In this document: positions 4,125-37,881 of the stretch, piece by piece
Position numbering within the stretch: the stretch's first letter is position 1
Layout of the letters: the number at the start of each line of letters is the position of its first letter
Assembly (NCBI RefSeq): GCF_044704955.1
Contig: NC_091982.1
Location: forward strand, 146,630,001-146,694,000
DNA from: Pristiophorus japonicus
Taxonomy: Eukaryota
Length of the DNA stretch: 64,000 bases
Reading direction: 5' to 3'
Translations under genes and position numbers: made by a program
The notes under the pieces: generated by a model
The model's database searches: none
Told to the model about the DNA's origin: nothing
The model's input: only the letters and a program-made list of their open reading frames with translations

Positions 4125-4900
4125 AAGAACTTAAGAAATAGGAGCAGGAATAGGCCATTTGGCCCCTCGAGCCTGCTCCGCTATTCAATAAGATCACGGT
4201 TGATCTGATCCTGGACTCAGCTCCACTTCCCTGCCTGCTCCACCATAACCCTTTACTCCCTTTATCGCTCAAAAATCTGTCTATCTCCACCTTAAATATA
4301 TTCAATGACCCAGCCTCCACAGCTCTCTGGGGCAGAAAATTCCATAGATTTACAACCCTTTGAGAAGAAATTTCTCCTCATCTCAGTTTTAAATCGGCAG
4401 CCCCTTATTCTAAGACTATGTCCCCTAGTTTTAATTTCCCCTATGAGTGGAAATATCCTCTCTGCATCCACCTTGTCGAGCTCCCCCATTACCTTATAAG
4501 TTTCTATAAGATCACCTCTCATTCTTCTGAACCCCAATGAATATAGGCCCAACCTACTCAACCTATCTTCATAAGTCAACCCTCTCATCTCTGGAATCAA
4601 CCTCGTGAACCTTCTCTGAACAACCTCCAATGCAAGTATATCCTTCCTTAAATACGGAGACCAAAACTGTACACGGTACTCCAGGTGTGGCCTCATCAAT
4701 ACCCTGTAGGTTGTAGCATGACTTCTCTGCTTTTATACTCTTTCCCCCTTGCAATAAAGGCCAACATTCCATTTGCCTTCCTGAATATTTGCTGTACCTG
4801 CATACTAACTTTTTATGTTTCATGCACAAGGACCCTCTGTACTGCAGCACGTTGCAATTTTTTTCCATTTAAATAATAACTTGCTCTTTGATTTTTTCCT
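4125..4900 (-). mobile_element. CR1-type LINE 3' fragment
   Basis: RPHLEYRVQFWSPYLRKDI...RGDLIETYK C-terminal ORF2 motif plus the family 3' UTR. Confidence 0.9.
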
Positions 4901-6988: not shown

Positions 6989-7194
6989 GCGCCACCCACG
7001 TGGTGACGTCATCCAGCGTGCAATGCCCCCTTGGCGCCACTCCCGCGATATTCGGTTTGTACAGATGCCTAACGGTCAGGCGTCCGTACTGCCCGGGGAA
7101 CATGGAGGGAACATCACGATGCTCGAGCGTATTCACCCAGAGAGCAAGATAAGTTTTGTTCTTTAGCTATTTCATCTTTTCATTCGTTGTGACA

Positions 7195-8510
7195 GTGGGG
7201 AAGTGTGTGTGCGGGTGGGGGGAGTGTGTGTGTGTGGGTGAGGGGAGTGTGTGTGCGCGGGTGGGTGGGGGGAGTGTGTGCGCGGGTGGGTGGGGGGAGT
7301 GTGTGCGCGGAGTGTGTGCGCGGGTGGGGGGGGGGGAGTGTGTGCGCGGGTGGGGGGAGTGTGTGCGCGGGTGGGTGGGGGGAGTGTGCGCGCGAGCGGG
7401 TGGGGGGAATGTGCGAGCGGGTGGGGGGAGTGTGCGCGCGGGTGGGGGGAATGTGCGAGCGGGTGGGGGGAGTGTGCGCGCGCGCGGGTGGGGGGAATGT
7501 GCGCGCGCGCGGGTGGGGGGAATGTGCGCGCGCGCGGGTGGGGGGAGTGCGCGCGCGCGGGTGGGGGGAGTGCGCGCGCGCGGGTGGGGGGAGTGCGCGC
7601 GCGCGGGTGGGGGGAGTGCGCGCGCGCGGGTGGGGGGAGTGCGCGCGCGGGTGGGGGGAGTGCGCGCGCGGGTGGGGGGAGTGCGCGCGCGGGTGGGGGG
7701 AGTGCGCGCGCGGGTGGGGGGGGGAGTGCGCGCGCGGGTGGGGGGGGGAGTGCGCGCGCGGGTGGGGGGGGGAGTGCGCGCGCGGGTGGGGGGGGGAGTG
7801 TGCGCGCGGGTGGGGGGGGAGTGTGCGCGCGGGTGGGGGGGGAGTTTGCGCGCGGGTGGGGGGAGTTTGTCTGTGGGTGGGGGGAGTTTGTGCGTGGGTG
7901 GGGGGAGTTTGTCTGTGGGTGGGGGGAGTTTGTCTGTGGGTGGGGGGAGTTTGTGTGTGGGTGGGGGGAGTTTGTCTGTGGGTGGGGGGAGTTTGAGCGC
8001 GGGTGGGGGGGGGGGAGTTTGAGCGCGGGTGGTGGGAGTTTGTGCGCGGGTGGGGGGAGTTTGTCTGTGGGTGGGGGGAGTTTGTGCGCGGGTGGGGGGA
8101 GTTTGTCTGTGGGTGGGGGGAGTTTGTGCGCGGGTGGGGGGAGTTTGTCTGTGGGTGGGGGGAGTTTGTGCGTGGGTGGGGGGAGTTTGTCTGTGGGTGG
8201 GGGGAGTTTGTCTGTGGGTGGGGGGAGTTTGAGCGCGGGTGGGGGGGGGAGTTTGAGCGTGGGTGGTGGGAGTTTGTCTGTGGGTGGAGGGAGTTTGTGC
8301 GTGGGTGGGGGGAGTTTGTCTGTGGGTGGGGGGAGTTTGTCTGTGGGTGGGGGGAGTTTGTCTGTGGGTGGGGGGAGTTTGTCTGTGGGTGGGGGGAGTT
8401 TGTCTGTGGGTGGGGGGGGAGTTTGAGCGCGGGTGGTGGGAGTTTGTGCGCGGGTGGGGGGAGTTTGTCTGTGGGTGGGGGGAGTTTGTGTGTGGGTGGG
8501 GGGAGTTTGA
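7195..8510 (+). repeat. G-rich minisatellite, ~21-25 bp unit (GGGTGGGGGGAGT + GTGCGCGC or TTGTCTGT)
   Basis: Directly visible tandem units. Confidence 0.97.
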
Positions 8511-11469: not shown

Positions 11470-14400
11470 ACTCACACACCCCCACCCCACCCAAACACTA
11501 CCCCCACAACCAGACATTGCCATCCCTCCCCACCCAGACACTACCCCACCGATCACCCAGACACTCCCACCACCCCACACCGACACTCCCCCCTCCACAC
11601 CCAGACACTCCCCCTTCCACACCCAGACACTCCCCCCTCCACACCCAGATACTCCCTCCCCCACACCCAGACACTCCCTCCCCCACACCCAGATACTCCC
11701 TCCCCCACACCCAGACACTCCCCCTTCCACACCCAGACACTCCCCCCTCCACACCCAGATACTCCCTCCCCCACACCCAGACACTCCCCCCCCTCCACAC
11801 CCAGACACTTCCTCCCCCACACCCAGACACTCCCCCCCCCCCCTCCACACCCAGACACTTCCTCCCCCACACCCAGATACTTCCTCCCCCACACCCAGAC
11901 ACTCCCTCCCCCACACCCAGATACTCCCTCCACCACACCCAGACACTCCCCCCCCCTCCACACCCAGACACTCCCCCTTCCTATCCCAGACACTCCCCCC
12001 TCCACACCCAGACACTCCCCCCCCTCCACACCCAGACGCTTCCTCCCCCACACCCAGACACTCCCCCCCCTCCACACCCAGACACTTCCTCCCCCACACC
12101 CAGACACTCCCCCTTCCACACCCAGATACTCCCTCCCCCACACCCAGACACTCCCCACCCCACACCCAGAAACTCCACCCCCCCATACACCTACACACTG
12201 CCTTCTCCACACTCAGACAGTCCCCCACAACCGCCACACCCAGACACTCTCCACCCCCCCACACCCAGACACTCCCTCCCCCACACCCAGACACTCCCTC
12301 CCCCACACCCAGAAACTCCCTCCCCCACACCCAGACACTCCCCCCTCCACACCCAGACACTCCCCCCTCCACACCCAGACACTCCCCCCTCCACACCCAG
12401 ACACTCCCCCCTCCACACCCAGACACTCCCCCCTCCACACCCAGACACTCCCCCCTCCACACCCAGACACTCCCCCCTCCACACCCAGACACTCCCCCCT
12501 CCACACCCAGACACTCCCCCCTCCACACCCAGACACTCCCCCCTCCACACCCAGACACTCCCCCCTCCACACCCAGACACTCACCCCTCCACACCCAGAC
12601 ACTCACCCCTCCACACCCAGACACTCACCCCTCCACACCCAGACACTCACCCCTCCACACCCAGACACTCACCCCTCCACACCCAGACACTCCCCCCTCC
12701 ACACCAAGACACTCCCTCCCCCACACCCAGAAACTCCACCCCCCCCTACACCTAGACACTGCCTTCTCCACACCCAGACAGTCCCCCACAACCCCCACAC
12801 CCAGACACTCTCCCCCCCCCACACCCAGACACTCCCTCCCCCACACCCAGACACTCCCTCCCCCACACCCAGAAACTCCCTCCCCCACACCCAGACACTC
12901 CCCCCTCCACACCCAGACACTCCACCCCCCCTACACCTAGACACTGCCTTCTCCACACTCAGGCAGTCCCTCACAACCCCCACACCCAGACACTCTCCCA
13001 CCCCCCCCACACCCAGACACTCTTCCCCCCCCCACACCCAGACACTCTTCCCCCCCCCACACCCAGACACTCTTCCCCCCCCCACACCCAGACACTCCCT
13101 CCCCCACACCCAGACACTCCCCACATCCCCCCACACCCAGACACTCCCTCCCCCACACCCAGACACTCCCTCCCCCACACCCAGAAACTCTTCCCCCCCC
13201 CCCACACCCAGACACTCCCTCCCCCACACCCAGACACTCCCTCCCCCACACCCAGACACTCCCCCCCCCACACCCAGACACTCCCCCCCCCCCACACCCA
13301 GACACTCCCCCCCCCCCACACCCAGACACTCCCCCCCCCCACACCCAGACACTCCCCCCACCCAACACCTAGACACTGCCTTCTCCACACCCAGACAGTC
13401 CCTCACAACCCCCACACCCAGACACTCCACCCCCATCACACCCAGACACTCCCTCCCCCACACCCAGACACTCCCCCCCCACACCCAGACACTCCTTCCT
13501 CCACAACCTGACACACCCCACACCGAGACACTCCCAGCACCCCCCCCCCACACCGAGACACTCAGCCCCCCAACACCCAAACACTCCCACCCCACACCCA
13601 GACACTCCCCCGCCCCCCCCACACCCAGACACTCTCCCCCCCCCACAGCCAGACATTCCCCACCCCCCACAACCAGACACTCCCCCCCCCCACCACACCC
13701 AGACAATCCCCACCACCCCCACACCCAACACCCCCCCACCCAACACCCACCCACCCCCCCCCAACACCCCCCCAAACCCACTCTCCCCCCACACCGACAT
13801 ACTCCCACCACCCCCCACACCCAGACACATTCCCGCCCCCCCCCCACACCCACACACTCCCCCGCCCCCCCCACACCCACACACTCCCCCTACACCCCAC
13901 ACACCCAGACACTTCCCCTCTCCCCACACACCCAGACACTCCCCCCCCCCCCACACCCAGACACTCCCCCACCCCCACACCCAGACACTCCCCCCGCACA
14001 CACACCCAGACACTTCCCCCCCCGACAGCAGACACTCCTCCCCCCCCACAACCAGACACTCCCCCCCCCCCACAACCAGACACTCCCCCCCCCACAACCA
14101 GACACTTCCCCCCCCCCCCCACACCCAGACACTCCCCCCCTCTCCACACCCAGACACTCCCCCCCTCTCCACACCCAGACACTCCCCCCCTCACACCCAG
14201 ACACTCCCCCCCTCACACCCAGACACTCCCCCCCTCACACCCAGACACTCCCCCCCTCACACCCAGACACTCCCCCCCTCACACCCAGACACTCCCCCCC
14301 TCACACCCAGACACTTCCCCCCCCACACCCAGACACTCCCCCCCCCACACCCAGACACTCCCCCCCCCACACCCAGACACTCCCCCCCCACACCCAGACA

Positions 14401-17153
14401 CTCCCCTCCCCACACTCTCCCCCCCCCACACACTCCCCCCCCCCACACAGACATTCCCCCCCCCACACCCAGACACTCCCCCCCCACACCCAGACACTCC
14501 CCCCCCACACCCAGACACTCCCCCCCCCCACACCCAGACACTCCCCCCCCCCCCCACACCCAGACACTCCCCCCCCCCCCCACACCCAGACACTCCCCCC
14601 CCCACACCCAGACACTCCCCCCCCCCCACACCCAGACACTCCCCCCCCCCACACCCAGACACTCCCCCCCCACACCCAGACACTCCCCCCCCACACCCAG
14701 ACACTCCCCCCCACACCCAGACACTCCCCCCCAACACCCAGACACTCCCCCCCCCCACACCCAGACACTCCCCCCCCACACCCAGACACTCCCCCCCCAC
14801 ACCCAGACACTCCCCCCCCACACCCAGACACTCCCCCCCCCACCCAGACATTTCCCCCCCCCACACCCAGACACTCCCCCCCCCCACCCAGACACTCCCC
14901 ACCCCCACACCCTCCCCCCCCACACCCACACCCTACCCCCCCACACCCACACCCTCCCCCCCCCACACCCACACCCTCCCCCCCCGACACCCAGACACCC
15001 CACCCCCCACACCCAGACACTCCCCGCCCCCCACACACCCAGACACTCCCCCCCCCACACACCCAGACATTCCCTCCCCCACACACCCAGACATTCACCC
15101 CCCCACACACCCAGACATTCCCCCCCCACACACCCAGACACACCCCCCCCCACACCCAGACCCCCCCCCCCACACCCAGACACCCCCCCCACACCCAGAC
15201 ACCCCCCCCACAACCAGACACCGCCCCCCCCACACCCAGACACCGCCCCCCCCACACCCAGACACCGCCCCCCCCACACCCAGACACCGCCCCCCCCCAC
15301 ACCCAGACACTCCCCCCCCCTCACACCCAGACACTCCCCCCCCACACCCAGACACTCCCCCCCCCCACCCAGACACTCCCCCCCCCCACACCCAGACAAT
15401 CCCCCCCACCCAGACACTCCCCCCCCACACACCCAGACAATCCCCTCCACCCAGACACTCCCCCCCCACACACCCAGACACTCCCCCCCCCACACACCCA
15501 GACACTCTCCCCCCCCCACACACCCAGACACTCTCCCCCCCCCACACACCCAGACAGACACTCCCCCCCCCCCACACACCCAGACAGACACTTCTCCCCC
15601 CCACACCCAGACACTCCCCCCCCCCCACACCCAGACACTCCCCCCCCCCCACACCCAGACACTCCCCCCCCTCAACACCCAGACACTCCCCCCCCCCACA
15701 CCCAGACACTCCCCCCCCCACACCCAGACACTCCCCCTCCCCAAACCCAGACACCCCCCCCCAAACCCAGACACTCCCCCCCGCAAACCCAGACAATCCC
15801 CCCCCCACACCCAGACACTCCACCCCCACACACCCAGACACTCCACCCCCCCACACCCAGACACTCCACCCCCCCACACCCAGACACTCCCCCCCCACAC
15901 CCAGACACTCCCCCCCCACACCCAGACACTCCCCCCCCACACCCAGACACTCCCCCCCCCACACCCAGACACTCCCCCCCCACACCCAGACACTCCCCCC
16001 CCACACCCAGACACTACCCCCCCACACCCAGACACTCCCCCCCACACCCAGACACTCCCCCCCCACACCCAGACACTCCACCCCCCCCACACCCAGACAC
16101 TCCACCCCCACACACCCAGACACTCCCCCCCCACACCCAGACACTCCCCCCCCCACACCCAGACACTCCCCCCCCCACACCCAGACACTCCCCCCCCCAC
16201 ACCCAGACACCCCCCACCCCCACACCCAGACACTCCCCCCACCCCCACACCCAGACACTCCCCACACCCCCACACCCTCCCCCCACCCCCACACCCAGAC
16301 ACTCCCACCATCCCCACACCCAGACCCTCCCCCCCCCCACACCCACACCCTTCCCCCCCCACACCCACACCCTCCCCCCCCCACACCCACACCCTCCCCC
16401 CCCCGACACCCAGACACCCCCCCCCACACCCAGACACTCCCCGCCCCCCACACACCCAGACACTCCCCGCCCCCCACACACCCAAACATTCCCCCCCCAC
16501 ACACCCAGACACCCCCCCCCCCACACCCAGACACACCCCCCCCCACACCCAGACACCCCCCCCACACCCAGACACCCCCCCCCACACCCAGACACCCCCC
16601 CCCCACACCCAGACACCCCCCCCACACCCAGACACCCCCCCCCACACCCAGACACCGCCCCCCCCCACACCCAGACACCGCCCCCCCCCACACCCAGACA
16701 CCGCCCCCCCCCACACCCAGACACCGCCCCCCCCACACCCAGACACCGCCCCCCCCCACACACCGCCCCCCCCCACACCCAGACACTCCCCCCCCTCACA
16801 CCCAGACACTCCCCCCCCTCACACCCAGACACTCCCCCCCCCTACCCAGACACTCCCCCCCCCCCCCCACACCCAGACACTCTCCCCCCCACACACCCAG
16901 ACAGACACTCCCCCCCCCCACACACCCAGACAGACACTTCCCCCCCCACACCCAGACACTCCCCCCCCCCCCACACCCAGACACTCCCCCCTCAACACCC
17001 AGACACTCCCCCCCCTCAACACCCAGACACTCCCCCCCCTCAACACCCAGACACTCCCCCCCCCCCACACCCAGACACTCCCCCACCCCAAACCCAGACA
17101 CTCCACCCCCCCACACCCAGACACTCCACCCCCCCACACCCAGACACTCCACC
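11470..17153 (+). repeat. C-rich minisatellite, ~21-24 bp unit CCCCACACCCAGACACTCCCC, running into the gap
   Basis: About 5.7 kb of visible tandem units with variable poly-C length. Confidence 0.98.
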
Positions 17154-17353
17154 NNNNNNNNNNNNNNNNNNNNNNNNNNNNNNNNNNNNNNNNNNNNNNN
17201 NNNNNNNNNNNNNNNNNNNNNNNNNNNNNNNNNNNNNNNNNNNNNNNNNNNNNNNNNNNNNNNNNNNNNNNNNNNNNNNNNNNNNNNNNNNNNNNNNNNN
17301 NNNNNNNNNNNNNNNNNNNNNNNNNNNNNNNNNNNNNNNNNNNNNNNNNNNNN
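17154..17353. other. assembly gap (200 N)
   Basis: Exactly 200 N, typical of a placeholder gap of unknown true size. Confidence 0.99.
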
Positions 17354-17672
17354 CGCGCCTCGCTCTCCCAATCCCACCCGCGCCTCGCTCTCCCAATCCC
17401 ACCCGCGCCTCGCTCTCCCAATCCCACCCGCACCTCGCTCTCCCAATCCCACCCGCACCACGCTCTCCCAGTCCCACCCGCACCTCGCTCTCCGAACCCC
17501 TTTCCACCCGCACCACGCTCTCCGAACCCCTTTCCACCCGCACCAGGCTCTCCGAACCCCTTTCCACCCGCACCAGGCTCTCCGAACCCCTTTACACCCG
17601 CACCAGGCTCTCCGAACCCCTTTACACCCGCACCAGGCTCTCCGAACCTCTTTACACCCGCACCAGGCTCTC
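17354..17672 (+). repeat. C-rich minisatellite (26-bp unit grading to 30-bp unit)
   Basis: CGCGCCTCGCTCTCCCAATCCCACCC units, then CACCCGCACCAGGCTCTCCGAACCCCTTTC units. Confidence 0.93.
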
Positions 17673-18241
17673 CCTCTCCTCCCCCTAGATTTGGTTGATT
17701 TCTCGGAAAGCGTGTGTGGCAAGTGACATCATTGGTCTGGACAAAATCCAGAAGTCACAACACTGTCATTATTCACTTGATACCCAATAAACCCTTTAAC
17801 AATCTGTGACCCACAAACAATGCTCCATCTATGGAGCGGGGAGGCAGGGAGAGGTCAGGAGCTTGTTGGTGGGTGGGAGGCGGTCATGAACCTAGGGAAG
17901 GAACTTGGGTAGCAGGGGCTCAGGAACCTGGGGGGAGGAACTTGGGCAGGGAAGAAGGTTAAGAACTTTGGCGGGAGGGTGGATGACGTGAATTTGGACG
18001 GGGGCGCGTGGGGTCGGTCAGGAACGTGAACAGACGGAGAAGGTCAGGAAGATGGTGCGTGGAAGGTCAAAACGCAGGGGTGTGAAGATGTTTAGAACCT
18101 TGTTGGAGGTTACATGAACTTGTTTGGGGTGGGGGAAGGGGGAGAGAGATGGTCTTAACCCGTGAGGGGAGAGCCCTGACTGTTCTATGTGAGCTCTGTT
18201 CTGTCTGGAGCCTGGCAGTCAAAATGGCTCAAATTACACTT

Positions 18242-18916
18242 TAGAAACATAGAAACATAGAAAATAGGTGCAGGAGTAGGCCATTCGGCCCTTCGAGCCT
18301 GCACCGCCATTCAACAAGATCACCCACACCCCCTCCACACCCCCGATCCCCCCAGCCGCAAGGACCACATCCAACTACATCCCGAACACATCCAATGAAC
18401 TGGCATCCAACAACTCTCCGCGGCAGGGAACCCCAAAGGCCAACAACTCCCCGAGTGAAGAAGTCTCACCCAATCCCAGCCCCAAACAGCCTACCCTCCA
18501 TCCCAAGAGTGTGCCCCCCCCCCCCCCCCCACGGCTCCGGACCCACCCAGCACCGGGAACACTCCCCCCGCACCCAACCCGTCTCGTCCCGTCCTAAATG
18601 CCGAACACTCCCGGATGTCGAGCCCCCAGCCCCCGCAATGCCAACCACACCACATCTACCAATCGCCATCTGCGCAGTCAACCCGTCCACCCCACTCTGA
18701 ACACTCTCCGCACCGAGGCACAGAGCCCCCAGGCCCGCCCCTCCAACACACTTCGCCCCCCCAGACCTCCGCTGCAATGTGGCCCCTCCTGTCCCACGCC
18801 CTGGGTTTATCCGCCCCCCACCTCCACCACTCTCCCCTACCTCCACCACTCTCCCCTACATCCCCCATCCCCGACTCCCCTCCACTTCCCTCTGCCTCCC
18901 CGCACAGGCTCCCATC
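18242..18916 (-). mobile_element. internally deleted, A-to-G hypermutated CR1 LINE
   Basis: (TTTCTATG)n tail and 3' UTR align with the copy starting at 34701; 18594-18916 matches the endonuclease N-terminal region (compare 48800-48950); pervasive T>C on the + strand. Confidence 0.85.
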
Positions 18917-19562
18917 TTGGGGGCGGTAACCTTCTGGGGCTGGGAATTTTAGCCCCCAGCATGGAAGTCCTGCTCCTGCCGCAGAATTGGCCTTACCACC
19001 CCTCAATGGAAGCGGAGTGCAATTTCCCACACTCCACTTCCTTTGGGGGCAGTTACCATGGCACGACTGGATGCTCCTGTGACAGTTTGAACTGGTGCTC
19101 TCCACTCTCCCATCCCCCATCCTGTGACAGTTTGAACTCTCTTTCGGTAATGTTTTCAAAGTCTCTTTTGGTAATGTTTTCACCTGTTGGTAGGTTTGTC
19201 TAGTTCCAGATTCAGTGGAAGGAGATTGCAAATCAGGAGCATTCCTTCAATACACAGTTACTAGTCAATACAGCAGCACCTAGAGAACATTAATGACCTG
19301 AATGTAAATCCTGATCAATCATTCATTTGAACATGTCAGTTCAACAATTCATTACCACATGCAAACTACTAGAAGCTTGGATAGCATGTGTGTTATTCTT
19401 AAACTGCCTTGTAAATGATACTGCAGAAAAGCTGCTTACAGACGTTACGTGTAACCAAAGGTAAAGAATTTCTCAAACATAAACACAATTTAAGAGGAAA
19501 AAGAATGAAAAAGTAAAATATTTTCTGCAGGGACAAACAAGCTGCAGAGTGTGCTTCGATTT

Positions 19563-19815
19563 TGTGGTGTCTCTGCACCGTACTACAAACTCAGTCACTA
19601 CGTGACCTTAACCTTTATTCCCAGGACCAAGGAGTGCTGACCCTGGGTGGGACCTCCCCTTTTATACCTGGAAACCCAGGTGAGGAGTGTCTCCCATAAG
19701 TTCACCCCCTATGGTCAGGATGTGCTTTTCTAGGGTATAAGTACAGTGTACAGGAGTTGCATGAAGGTTACAGTTACATGAAGATTACCGTTGCATGATG
19801 GTTACATACATGACA
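19563..19815 (-). mobile_element. short solo LTR
   Basis: TGT...ACA termini; perfect 5-bp TSD GATTT (19558-19562, 19816-19820); minus-strand TATAAAA (19660-19666) and AATAAA (19614-19619). Confidence 0.85.
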
Positions 19816-21099
19816 GATTTCCAAACCAAAACATTCCAAGCCATGTGCTAAATACAATGCCTGGTCTGTGTCAAGGTACTGATCTCAATTGAGGTCGCAA
19901 TTGGCTCAGAGTCCCTGAAGTGGAGAAAAAACAAAGAAAATTGGCAAGATTCCCACTTGCAAAGTATTTGATTTCTTGGGCAGGCAAGATCTACTGCTGG
20001 GCGTGTCTGGTTCCCTTAGAGGACAAATCAGAAATCAGGTGTTGCCTTCAAGGTGACCAATATCAGAGATCTGGTGTTCGAAATAAACACAACCTTTTTT
20101 ATATATCTCAACTTCAAAGGGAAGCTTCTTACATTCACTTGACCAGTGGGAGTGGTGTATATCAATCAGGTTCCCTCCTTTTCCTGCTAATTATCCGAAC
20201 GATCAGTAAGTGCTCTGGGAGATCTTTTGAAACACAGAAGAAAGAATTTCTAGACAGGCCGGCTCAACTTTACAACGCCCTTGCCATCCAGTCTCATTTG
20301 AACCAAGGATCCTTCACCGGACCAGATAAGTTGTGAAATGTTTGTCACCTCCTAGGCTGTTCGATAGACCCGAGTCTCCCAAATAACTTTTAATACTACC
20401 CTCCTAGTGTAATTAACTCAATAGCTTGATTTTATGTCCTTTGTTTGACTACCTTGTCAGCTTATGTTGACCAGCTACTTCCTCGCATTCAATTCAGCCG
20501 ATGAACTTCATATTGCGCGGGCAGCTTTTAAACTAAAACTAATTTTAGGCAGTTTGCAGGGCATTTCTTCTACGATTCTCTTGGGCAACTTTGCACAATT
20601 TAAGGGGCACTTTTGCTACACTATAGGCAAACTATTCAACTGCAGGATGTATACCAATCCTGTCTTCATACAATAACTCACATCGGTACTCAGTAACTGG
20701 TCATTAGTAACTGATAGTGCAGCTAATTCCTCACATCACCAAGCTTTGGGATATCAATGCCCGTTGTGGTCCCCGATGTTAATATTGGGTGAAAACAGGT
20801 AACAGTAACATTTCTCATTTATTTATTTTACTATCAGGTTAGGCTCCTCATGTGTAAATTTGTTTGACGATAGCTTCTAGAGCTTCACTCGAGCCATACA
20901 ATCATCGCATTCTCTTTAAAGGCTTCGGCTTGTCAAACCTCCTGACTTTCTTCATTCTCCACCAGGAACAGTTGTGCAGTCTTGCCTTTGGAATCAGTTG
21001 GTGACTGCTGTATTTTTGCCATTGTCTCTTCTATGTATGGCCAGGTAACTGTGGTACAGATTTTTACTTTGCACAACTGTCCATATTATTTGTGCTTTT

Positions 21100-33730: not shown

Positions 33731-34700
33731 GTGTCACAGTGGCACAGGAAGCTGGAGTGATGACAATTATATTTTTAATGGGACTTTGATCTTTTCATAT
33801 TTACAGTCTATTTTATTTCCTGTTACACTGGCCTTTGAAGAGGCTGGTGCTGCAGTGTCTCCCTTGTTTTCCAGGCTCTGTGAGAGTGGTTGCATAGTTT
33901 GAGACTTATTTTCATTGACCATTCTGTATTCAGAAGCTGCCTGCAATTGGGTATGAGCGTGACATACTTTTGCTAGTTTGGCAGTTATCTTCTAACTTCA
34001 CTATATATGGGCAGAGGCTAGCTAAGGACTCCCAAGTTATCGTTCTCAAATAAAGCTTCCCATCATGGTCCAAACAAGAGACCACTGCTAAAGAATTCTT
34101 GAATGTTATTGTTTTGAAAAGCAAATTGAGTTATGTCAGATATTATATCCTCACTAAAATCTGCCATTTAGTAGGAAAATTAAAAGATTTGAAACAAAGT
34201 TTATTTGCAGTTCTGGTCTAAGATCCAAGGTCTGTCAACATTTGTCTGTCAGTCAGAGAGGCCAGGGTTTACCTGTTATTCCAAATTACTTAGTACATTC
34301 GGTCATATATTATGGTCTGTGAGCATTGGGGGCTTGTATTGGGCATGAAAACACCATCTAGAGTGAGCTTGAATCACAACAAAGGCCATGGACCTCTCCT
34401 GTGTGTTCCACAAAAAAGGAATTCATCTGTCCAGCTGTCTTGAAATCTGTAAGCCTCTAAATCTATTTCCATTACTTGGAATCCTTTCCTTCTACTTCGA
34501 ACAGACAAACAATAATAATAGTAGCAGAAGTTGAACAATCTGACTGTTAGAAATGTTGCAACACTATCTTTTGGTAATACTGAAAGATTAAGCAATCCTG
34601 ACTGATTTCCAGTAGCCCAGCTCACAAGCTGGGTGCCACTGCCACCTTTCAGCTCCCAGCTCCTCCGCATTGTACCACCAGGGCTCCCAGCAGCCAGGAC

Positions 34701-36420
34701 ACATAGAAACATAGAAAATAGGTGCAGGAGTAGGCCATTCTGCCCTTCAAGCCTACACCGCCATTCAATAAGATCATGGCTGATCATTCCTTCAGTACCA
34801 CTTTACTGCTTTCTCTCCATACCCCTTGATCCCCTTAACCGTAAGGGCCATATCTAACTCCCTCTTGAATATATCCAATGAACTGGCATCAACAACTTTC
34901 TGCGGCAGGGAAATCCACAGGCTAACAACTCTCTGAGAGAAGAAGTTTCTCCTCATCTCAGTCCTAAATGGCCTACCCCTTATCCTAAGACTGTGTCCCC
35001 TGGTTCTGGACTTCCCCAACATCGAGAACATTCTTCCCGCATCTAACCTGTCCAGTCCCGTCAGAATCTTATATGTTTGTATGAGATCCCCTCTCATCCT
35101 TCTAAACACCAGTGAATAAAGGCCCAGTTGATCCAGTCTCTCCTCATATGACAGCCCAGCCATCCCTGGAATCAGTCTGGTGAACCTTCGCTGCACACCC
35201 TCAATAGCAAGAACGTCCTTCCTCAGACTAGACCAAAACTGAACACAATATTCTAGATGAGGCCTCACTAAGGCCCTGTACAACTGCAGTAAGACCTCCC
35301 TGCTCCTATACTCAAATCCCCTAGCTATGAAGGCCAACATACCATTTGCCTTCTTTACCGCCTGCTGTACCTGCATGCCCACTTTCAGTGACTGATGAAC
35401 CATGACACCAGGTCTCGTTGCACCTCCCCTTTTTCTAGTCTGCCATTCAGATAATATTCTGCCTTCGTGTTTTTGCCCCCAAAATGGATAACCTCACATT
35501 TATCCACATTATACTGCATCTGCCATATATTTGCCCACTCGCCTAATCTGTCCAAGTCACCCTGCAACCTCTTAGCGTCCTCCTCACAGCTCACACCGCC
35601 ACCCAGTTTAGTGTCATCTGCAAACTTGGAGATATTATACTCTATTCCTTCATCCAACTCATTAATGTATATTGTAAAGAGCTGGTGTCCCAGCACTGAG
35701 CCCTGCGGCACCCCACTAGTCACTGCCTGCCATTCTGAAAAGGACCTGTTTATCCCGACTCTCTGCTTCCTGTCTGCCAACCAGTTCTCTATCCACGTCA
35801 GTACATTACCCCCAATACCATGCGCTTTGATTTTGCACACCAATCTCTTGTGCAGGACCTTGTCAAAAGCCTTTTGAAAGTCCAAATACACCACATCCAC
35901 TGGTTCTCCCTTGTCCACTCTACTAGTTACATCCTCAAAAAATTCCAGAAGATTCGTCAAGCATGATTTCCCTTTCATAAATCCATGCTGACTCGGTCCG
36001 ATCCTGTCACTGCTCTCCAAATGGGCTGCTATTTCATCCTTAATGATTGATTCCAACATTTTCCCCACTACTGATGTCAGGCTAACCAGTCTATAATTAC
36101 CTGCTTTCTCTCCCTCCTTTTTAAAAAAAAAAAAAAGTGGCGTTACATTAGCTACCCTCCAGTCCATGGGAACTGATCCAGAGTCGATAGATTGTTGGAA
36201 AATGATCACCAATGCATCCACTATTTCTAGGGCCACTTCCTTAAGTACTCTGGGATGCAGACTATCAGGCCCCGGGGATTTAGTGGCCTTTAATCCCATC
36301 AATTTCCCTCACACAATTTCCTGCCTAATAAGGATATCTTTCAGTTCCTCATTCTCACTAGACCCACTGTCCCCTAGTACATTCGGAAGGTTATTTGTAT
36401 CTTCCTTTGTGAAGACAGAC
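34701..36420 (-). mobile_element. CR1-type LINE, relatively young 5'-truncated copy
   Basis: 305-aa RT ORF ([25 protein letters not shown]) continued after a frameshift by a 203-aa ORF; (TTTCTATG)n tail. Confidence 0.95.
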
Positions 36421-37881
36421 ACGGGTGCAGAAATACTCCATCCACAACACTGTCTGCTTTGGAATGCACAATTATTACATTGAGAAAAACTTTCCTTTTC
36501 TCACATCTTTCACATCATCGGGGCGTCCCAAAGCGATTCAGAGCCAATGAATTACTGTGAAAAGTATCGATGTTGTCTTGTGGCAAACACGGCGGATAAT
36601 TTGTACATGGCAATGTACCACAGATAGTAATGAGATACTGACCCGTGAATCTGTTTTAGTGCCATTGGATGATGGATAGATGCTGGCCAGACCTCTCGTG
36701 CTCCTCTTCAGATAGTGCCGTGGGATGTTTACATCTTTACATCCACCTGAGTAGGCAGTCAGGGCCTGGGTTTAATGTCTCATCTGAAACTTGGGACCGT
36801 TATTAACTACACGTTGATACACTCATGGAGTCCAGCAATTGTCGGAACTATTTTAATGTTTGCGATTCCCATACATTTGTATATGTACATCATGTAAATC
36901 ATAGGCCATTTAAAAAAGAAAACTCTGATTATGACAGGTCTTCTGAGTATGGCACAATCCAATGTACTTGTTGAAATGAGAAACGAGGGAAAAATTTATT
37001 TGTGGATACCAACTGACAATGACATAACTAAAATCTTGGTGAATTGAACCTCTGCCATGCTGACCCTTGCCTTGATCTTTAGGGTAGATTATAGAATCAT
37101 GAAATGATGCACCACAGAAGGAAGCCATTCGGCCCATCATACTTGTGTTGGCTCTTTTAAAGAGCTATCCAAGGGTCTTGTATGTGGCTCGCCTTATATG
37201 TGGATTTATACTGCATATCTAACGGCACATAACTGCTTTGCTTCTGGGAAAAGACTATTGGTACTGAGATGGGATGGTGATTTAGAACAGAGTTGTCGGA
37301 TTCTTCCCCACTGGTAACCTGAACATCCGTGTGCTTTGTGATGAATGATTCCTATTCAAAGAATGACAAACACACTAAGTAATCTATAGTGGGCTTTTTA
37401 TTCCTATGTGGATGGAAAGGATTACAAAAGATACTTGGGAGCACCAATTTAATACCACAATTAAACTGCATTAACTGGACTAGTGCTAGCCCCAAAAAAG
37501 GTGGCATGTTGAGCCTAATTGTGACGACCTACAGCAGTCACTGTCTTGCACTAATTTCCTTTGTGCCTGCACAGTCTAACTGCCACTGATTCCTCTGCAG
37601 TTTGACTTCCATAAAAACCATTGAAAGTTTTCTTTTCTTGAAGACTAGTGTGTTAAAGGGCCACATCCAGACCTGACAGGAGTGGGTCGACAGTTCTCTG
37701 TTGACTATAAGGTTGCCAATTATGTTGCATGTGATCCTTAAGCACTCTGCACCCTGGGAGAAAGTGGCTCAAATAAGTTAGCATTGGCCACATGAATCAT
37801 TTCATAAACTGAGCTGGCACTCTACTGACTGGCATGGAGTAATGACTACAGTGTGTTCTTGTGTATTATTTTCTTAAACAG

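Follow-up and report, generated by a model that had tools for sequence, protein, structure and literature searches.

A CR1-derived retroposon copy on the minus strand of the window (the whole 64,000-nucleotide stretch analysed here, C6:146630001-146694000 of a 5.9-Gb genome) very probably belongs to a family whose founder RNA was hyper-edited once by ADAR, retrocopied into the germline and amplified to about 1,800 copies, a reading built from sequence comparison. The preliminary description of this DNA had proposed that the window copy's own RNA was hyper-edited, and that the copy records ADAR acting against retrotransposition. Neither proposal is supported: the edits were inherited from a founder common to ~1,800 copies, and this founder was amplified rather than stopped. 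The description had also placed a CR1 LINE copy at 18242..18916; the CR1 identity stands, but the extent does not, the insertion occupying 18242-19957. Its parts, together with a reference copy elsewhere in the window, are the following.

18237..18241, no strand: 3' copy of the 5-bp target-site duplication (CACTT on the + strand, read from the sequence)
18242..18314, minus strand: unedited CR1 3' tail, stem-loop and (TTTCTATG)n repeats; 12/12 parent A retained, including 4 in UA context
18315..18593, minus strand: hyper-edited CR1 3' end (end of ORF2 and 3' UTR), parent L129 6997-7292
18594..18916, minus strand: hyper-edited CR1 5' piece (ORF1/ORF2 boundary, endonuclease start), parent L129 4288-4615
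18917..19077, minus strand: non-LINE segment common to the family; its last ~40 bp resemble a DNA-transposon terminal inverted repeat
19078..19138, minus strand: 37/38-bp tandem repeat, ~1.5-2 units (arrays of 1 to >600 units in other copies)
19139..19957, minus strand: 5'-transduced flank from the probable donor locus at C14:56.075 Mb, common to the C14 and C15 loci
19954..19958, no strand: 5' copy of the target-site duplication; 4/5 bases are microhomology with the donor
34698..36440, minus strand: unedited parent-subfamily CR1 copy of at least 1.7 kb, a reference outside the element

Family elements share one layout from 5' to 3': the 37/38-bp tandem array, a non-LINE piece of ~160 bp, the CR1 ORF1/ORF2 boundary, a 2.4-kb deletion and the CR1 3' end. 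The two CR1 pieces are joined across the deletion with GAT microhomology, and the window copy carries an extra deletion of ~10 bp at this internal junction. Splicing was considered as the cause of the 2.4-kb deletion and rejected, there being no GT..AG at the junction. The non-LINE segment has no Rfam match of note; its end matches a terminal stretch of a repeat family at 81% over 38 bp, and its last ~40 bp are presumably Harbinger-like.

Once A and G are treated as one letter, the element can be aligned to L129, a member of the same subfamily as the copy at 34698, at its positions 4286-4615 and 6997-7362. It is collinear with this parent from the last part of an esterase-type ORF1 into the beginning of the ORF2 endonuclease and then, beyond the 2.4-kb deletion, over the 3' end. 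Pfam matches of the parent are weak and below cut-off (GDSL for ORF1; Exo_endo_phos, E 1.8e-4); by its anatomy, from which the clade name is taken, the parent is a CR1-clade LINE with an esterase-type ORF1, an endonuclease ORF2 and a repeat tail. A copy at ~48800 had earlier served as the comparator for an A>G bias in the 5' half. The bias is real, but this copy belongs to a different subfamily, only ~81% alike even with A and G collapsed, and is rejected as the parent.

The count from which the editing was first suspected is reproduced exactly. The 63-bp block 18345-18407 differs from 34828-34890 at 13 positions, nine of them T>C and none C>T, and the + strand contexts of the T>C changes are TA 6/6, TT 2/2, TG 1/3 and TC 0/6. 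The pattern extends to the full length of the element, where we compared column majorities of 56 family copies with those of 30+30 parent copies, projected on one natural parent copy and aligned under a matrix that scores the two kinds of transition equally; four of 60 family loci had been left out (a duplicate of the window copy, two near-duplicates and one rearranged locus). Over 620 columns, A>G is found at 143/209 parent-A columns, against T>C 2/123, C>T 5/97 and G>A 3/191; changes other than A>G number 18. The low count of sense-strand G>A (3/191) rejects an APOBEC DNA-editing product. In the CR1-derived body of the window copy itself, A>G affects 122/191 parent-A columns, with G>A at 8/175, T>C at 3/116 and C>T at 7/87. 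The changed sites span the 5' junction, continue across the deletion junction and run to window position 18315, and the bias ends where the CR1 part ends, with no extension into the non-LINE flank.

The changed adenosines follow the base that precedes them. By 5' neighbour, A>G is found at U 31/31, A 55/69, C 28/43 and G 29/64 (1.00, 0.80, 0.65 and 0.45), and the depletion after 5' G against all other neighbours is significant (p=1.6e-6). This order matches the U>A>C>G published for ADAR1/2 (PMC11019741). The same source gives a 3' preference of ADAR1 as G>C~A>U, and no comparable effect of a 3' G is seen here (49/68 vs 94/139, p=0.63), which near saturation may flatten. An edited 5' A has no effect on A>G (39/49 vs 15/19). 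The full-length spectrum, the strand specificity and the neighbour order thus hold on 209 A columns, as the preliminary description had anticipated, and we attribute the strand-specific A>G with high confidence to ADAR-type A-to-I hyper-editing of the sense RNA. The genome contains ADAR-family deaminase domains at six loci, ADAR1/2, ADAD and ADAT taken together.

The same changes might instead have been made in DNA or during reverse transcription, by ADAR acting on the sense DNA of a DNA:RNA hybrid, by polymerase eta at WA sites, or by reverse transcriptase misincorporation under skewed dNTP pools. Polymerase eta produces A>G at WA sites, so the placing of U and A first also fits its action; its rates are far lower and its products include many transversions. 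In the family, transversions occupy only 2/145 changed A columns (one A>C, one A>T), and 68% of all A are changed, CA and GA included. Deamination of first-strand cDNA predicts sense T>C, which is found at 2/123 columns, and there is no 3' or run effect of the dislocation type. ADAR does edit DNA in hybrids in model substrates (PMC12925331); nonetheless, an origin in DNA or reverse transcription is highly improbable on these counts.

All 56 family copies carry A>G at the same columns, with 61-70% of A changed in each. The identity of the pattern indicates that editing happened once, in the founder. Ongoing editing within the family was considered and rejected, as private A>G changes are mostly at CA and unclustered. 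With poorly aligned sites removed, they amount to 40/3114 in the family vs 38/5504 in the parent, and no family copy has more than 3; a higher raw figure is partly alignment noise in G runs. Family copies diverge from their own column majority by 3.3% on average.

Slow compositional drift, through GC-biased conversion or selection for G-quadruplexes, or an error of assembly, would fit a body that is now quadruplex-prone and the position of an assembly gap (17154-17353) 0.9 kb from the window copy. Such origins predict neither a single substitution type on one strand nor the same sites in 56/56 copies across many contigs, and the strand-specific spectrum and the copy number refute them; we give them virtually no weight. 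An artefact of the assembly in particular is excluded, since other contigs carry many copies and the G-rich body also appears in contigs of a different sample and study. In runs X1 (possibly the assembled sample) and X5 (same organism, another sample and study) every bin of this body has contig coverage. Contigs of run X6 (organism B) cover parts of the body and the 5' segment, and those of run X9 (organism C) cover the tail, the body being almost entirely absent. In the contig comparison C>T appears only at 18769 and 18875. No single contig among those compared spans the exact window locus, and the X1 contig across the 5' flank is the C14/C15 version. The assembly gap is flanked by long C/A-rich tandem arrays of ~22-30 bp units (11470-17153 and 17354-17673), with related inverted copies at ~7200-8500.

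The family is dispersed through the genome. A search with 18242-18916 gave 2,740 candidates, of which the 40 scored all match, at 81-88% save for the self-match and mostly at full length; the G content of the element strand is 48-51% in all 30 fetched loci. A search with the non-LINE segment gave 2,002 candidates, and 30/30 fetched loci, the window included, run on into the G-rich body. A 24-nt motif across the internal junction has 868 exact matches genome-wide (reversed control 0). It is exact in only 27/57 sampled copies (3/60 loci having been left out), from which we estimate about 1,800 copies; the 57 were picked by similarity to the window copy, and the family size is an estimate accordingly. 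Copies share a common 3' tail of varying length in varying flanks, and their 5' ends are variable, mostly falling inside the array of 1 to >600 units. Dispersed copies, a common 3' end, variable 5' ends and the lack of coding capacity are the features of a non-autonomous retroposon, and the target duplications at the window and at C15, together with the variable 5' ends and tails, are marks of retroposition. No tRNA or 5S match was found in Rfam across the array, 5' segment and body of one copy, so that the head of a tRNA-derived SINE is not among its features. We take the 37/38-bp unit to resemble polymerase III A and B boxes; a polymerase III promoter in this unit was considered and set aside as lacking support, with no Rfam match. 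At C2:342586104-342610500 an array of this unit extends for ~24 kb (>600 units) before one copy. The family may already be named in Repbase or Dfam without its origin having been noted.

The preliminary description had held that the ~70 nt nearest the tail look unedited, and this is borne out. The last edited site is window position 18315, which delimits the unedited tail to 18242-18314; the probability of keeping all 12 A of this 73-nt stem-loop tail is ~1e-10 under the rates of the body. This tail is likely the recognition site of ORF2p. Stringent LINEs require a 3' stem-loop (PMC3747384). The tail of the unedited copy on C18 is predicted to fold into one at -24.3 kcal/mol; the last 104 nt of the window copy fold no better than shuffles (z -0.73).

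A search for the unedited form of the junction, with at most 2 mismatches, returned seven matches: six family members and one unedited CR1 copy, L175 (C18:40836887-40838579), with ORF1 upstream and the identical internal junction. L175 keeps A at 130/143 of the columns where the family has G. Since it has the junction yet keeps A, the 2.4-kb deletion preceded the editing. A near-full CR1 belonging to the second subfamily (C18:40838849-40843027) faces L175 tail to tail at a distance of 270 bp and is 85-86% complementary to both halves of L175; in a predicted fold of the 1026-nt read-through, 339 long-range pairs form over the 3' half. A 91-bp antisense CR1 tail fragment (C18:40838623-40838713) lies 44 bp behind the L175 tail. 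Farther along, 8 kb from L175, is an edited family member (C18:40846206-40847135); at ~1 copy per 3 Mb, the chance of such proximity is roughly 1 in 150 by estimate.

As a special case of the founder-RNA explanation, the C18 locus may be the literal source, its deleted CR1 having been read through into the inverted neighbour and the resulting hairpin edited in cis. We regard this as a serious possibility, if one we do not quite favour. L175 is the only unedited copy with the junction at this stringency, and it shares with the family both the junction and a rare T>G beside it; the inverted partner covers both halves, and the edited family member lies 3 kb past that partner. Against this, L175 has only 4/18 of the non-A>G differences diagnostic of the family, the T>G being the only one of the four that is rare among parent copies, so that it is possibly not the template but a sibling. 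From its own subfamily the inverted partner diverges by 2.9% (49/1670) against 4.5% (73/1624) for L175 and a family mean of 3.3%, and it looks younger both than L175 and than the edit. The tail is also paired in the predicted C18 hairpin, though it is unedited in the family, and A:C mismatch sites of the hairpin are edited at 5/5 vs 118/172 for A:U, too few to tell. A narrow test for an unedited body behind the 5' segment of the family found 0 motif matches.

The extent of the editing itself is unusual. ADAR converts 40-50% of A in long duplexes (PMC11019741), and the 68% of the family exceeds this end point, so that more than one editing round may have been needed. At least two rounds of editing and retroposition before the amplification, in which an edited copy was transcribed again, G:U-paired with antisense CR1 RNA and re-edited, would account for this excess, for the 45% editing even at 5'-G sites and for one column split 36 G : 20 A among the copies. 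Such a history is nevertheless unlikely: a half-edited intermediate is absent among the seven unedited-junction matches examined, A is kept at a UA site in 0 of the first 100 junction matches listed, and no copy has a later A>G cluster.

Editing of this kind probably also struck the genome outside the family. Among 535 CR1 pieces in 1.16 Mb examined, 153 have a cluster of one transition type at p<1e-5, and in all 153 this type is A>G on the sense strand. The flagged pieces are family members at all loci but one. The one exceptional locus is C14:56074391-56074865, where a 475-bp copy belonging to the second subfamily has 17 A>G, 2 G>A, 0 T>C and 2 C>T changes; 14 other copies have 0-9 A>G over the same stretch, and the 14 nearest relatives fetched each have only 0-3 of its 16 changes in common with it. 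It is likely a second, independent editing event, with small context counts. In an evenly spaced sample of 400 kb, none of the CR1 pieces (0/83) reached p<1e-5 for an A>G cluster; a G>A cluster was found in one old CR1 copy. Events of CR1 A>G hyper-editing are rare.

The immediate source of the window copy can be traced further. Its 5' flank up to 19957 is common to loci on C14, C15 and, over 53 bp, C13, and the C14 and C15 loci have 4.4 kb in common at 96%. The C15 copy is inserted in a DNA transposon with an AAA duplication, the window copy has its 5-bp duplication, and C14 retains flank further upstream than either. The shared flank, the duplications at C15 and the window and the further upstream flank kept at C14 make C14 the likely donor of both copies, presumably transcribed from an upstream host promoter. 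C15:26.92 Mb was considered as the founder site and rejected, being a 4.6-kb retrocopy from C14 in a DNA transposon (C15:26917988-26922601); it includes 3.7 kb of 5' host flank carrying other repeats. The founder's own insertion site was not found among the loci followed (C14, C15). The family member on C14 is without a tail of its own, and the inverted A>G-rich CR1 copy of the second subfamily lies at its 3' end. Within the transduced flank, ~19563-19815 is a high-copy repeat that we take to be LTR-like, in sense orientation upstream of the element and with TATA-like and AATAAA motifs. It is a possible promoter for the C14 donor, though the retrocopies start upstream of the repeat.

Taken together, the founder-RNA explanation implies the following course. 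A CR1 copy first lost 2.4 kb internally, as the unedited junction copy surviving at C18:40.84 Mb shows. A transcript of a C18-type copy or of a sibling would then have become double-stranded, whether it ran on into an inverted CR1 or paired with antisense CR1 RNA, and ~68% of its adenosines would have been deaminated. In human cells L1 RNA is reported to be unedited by ADAR1 (PMC5224506), which counts against the involvement of ADAR at this step. The tail may have been spared because the 3' stem-loop escaped, or because only tail-intact molecules could be mobilised. ORF2p would have reverse-transcribed the edited RNA, reading I as G, and a 5'-truncated cDNA would have landed behind the tandem repeat in a transcribed locus. 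Read-through transcripts of the founder locus and of later copies, as the anatomy of the copies shows, were then retroposed via the intact tail, and the amplification proceeded without further clustered editing. The window copy probably derives from the secondary donor on C14 and brought 0.8 kb of 5' flank along.

Several known systems resemble parts of this course. The composite elements of the SVA type likewise combine a tandem-repeat block, a GC-rich body and 5' transduction; they are driven by L1 and end in poly(A), whereas the family described here is driven by CR1 and ends in a stem-loop tail, and kinship in sequence between the two is not to be expected. The HE1 SINE of sharks and rays shares its 3' tail with the CR1-type LINE HER1 and is likewise non-autonomous (PMC3747384); the present family differs in the absence of a tRNA or 5S head among its matches, in its hyper-edited LINE body and in its 5' tandem array of variable length. 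APOBEC-edited vertebrate LTR retroelements also bear clusters of one substitution made by a deaminase, fixed in the germline in one step and recognised against an unedited relative (PMC4866542). Their changes are G>A, through C-to-U editing of cDNA, in a study of LTR elements rather than LINEs (PMC4866542), whereas here a non-LTR element was changed A>G on its RNA strand, and the edited founder made a large family. Reverse transcription of A-to-I edited RNA is likewise described for Rous-associated virus, avian leukosis virus and HTLV-2/STLV-3 (PMC12925331) and for BLV proviruses (PMC8025556). In these accounts up to ~50% of A are changed, once in an inverted repeat; the changes occur in infected cells and in short patches, and are not described there as germline-fixed or amplified (PMC12925331, PMC8025556). 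In the present case 68% of A are changed along ~620 nt, and the host-LINE derivative that carries these changes has ~1,800 copies in the genome. Restriction of LINE-1 by ADAR1, also a meeting of ADAR with LINE RNA, is reported not to need editing, with 0 edits in >2.5 kb of L1 RNA (PMC5224506), unlike the massive editing seen here, which did not stop mobility. In the searchable open-licence PMC and bioRxiv literature, ADAR-type edits were found reported for no retroposon family of the germline. Retroelements hypermutated by deaminases are thus already known, and an amplified germline family born of ADAR, as the sequences suggest, would be new.

The edited body contains 4-6 quadruplex motifs and 29-35 CpG per copy (3 copies), against 0 and 13 in L175. 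It is our guess that the edited element escaped small-RNA silencing aimed at its parent. On balance we lean towards the view that a single ADAR event made a new transposable element family in one step, rewriting ~23% of the CR1 RNA bases, sparing the tail needed for mobility, possibly hiding the element from parent-aimed silencing and seeding ~1,800 G-quadruplex-rich, CpG-enriched loci. Under this view the unedited template and its hairpin partner would still be in the genome, and the second edited CR1 copy would indicate that the route recurs. The case for a new route of transposon birth is credible.

The family offers a natural archive in which RNA editing was written into the germline of an animal and the result then copied many times over. 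It preserves a 200-site footprint that ADAR once left on a single molecule, and an unedited relative exists to compare it with. It is relevant to the editing of LINE RNA by ADAR in vivo, which is unseen for human L1 in culture, and indicates that editing need not inactivate an element. It also maps which part of the CR1 RNA has to be preserved if the RNA is to be mobilised. Because the alignment of A>G-rich copies with their parents reaches only ~70%, ADAR-edited families would have been missed so far, which suggests that repeat libraries may hide more of them. If the explanation is true, RNA editing would act as a mutagen of the germline with heritable effect and give rise to new retroposon families.
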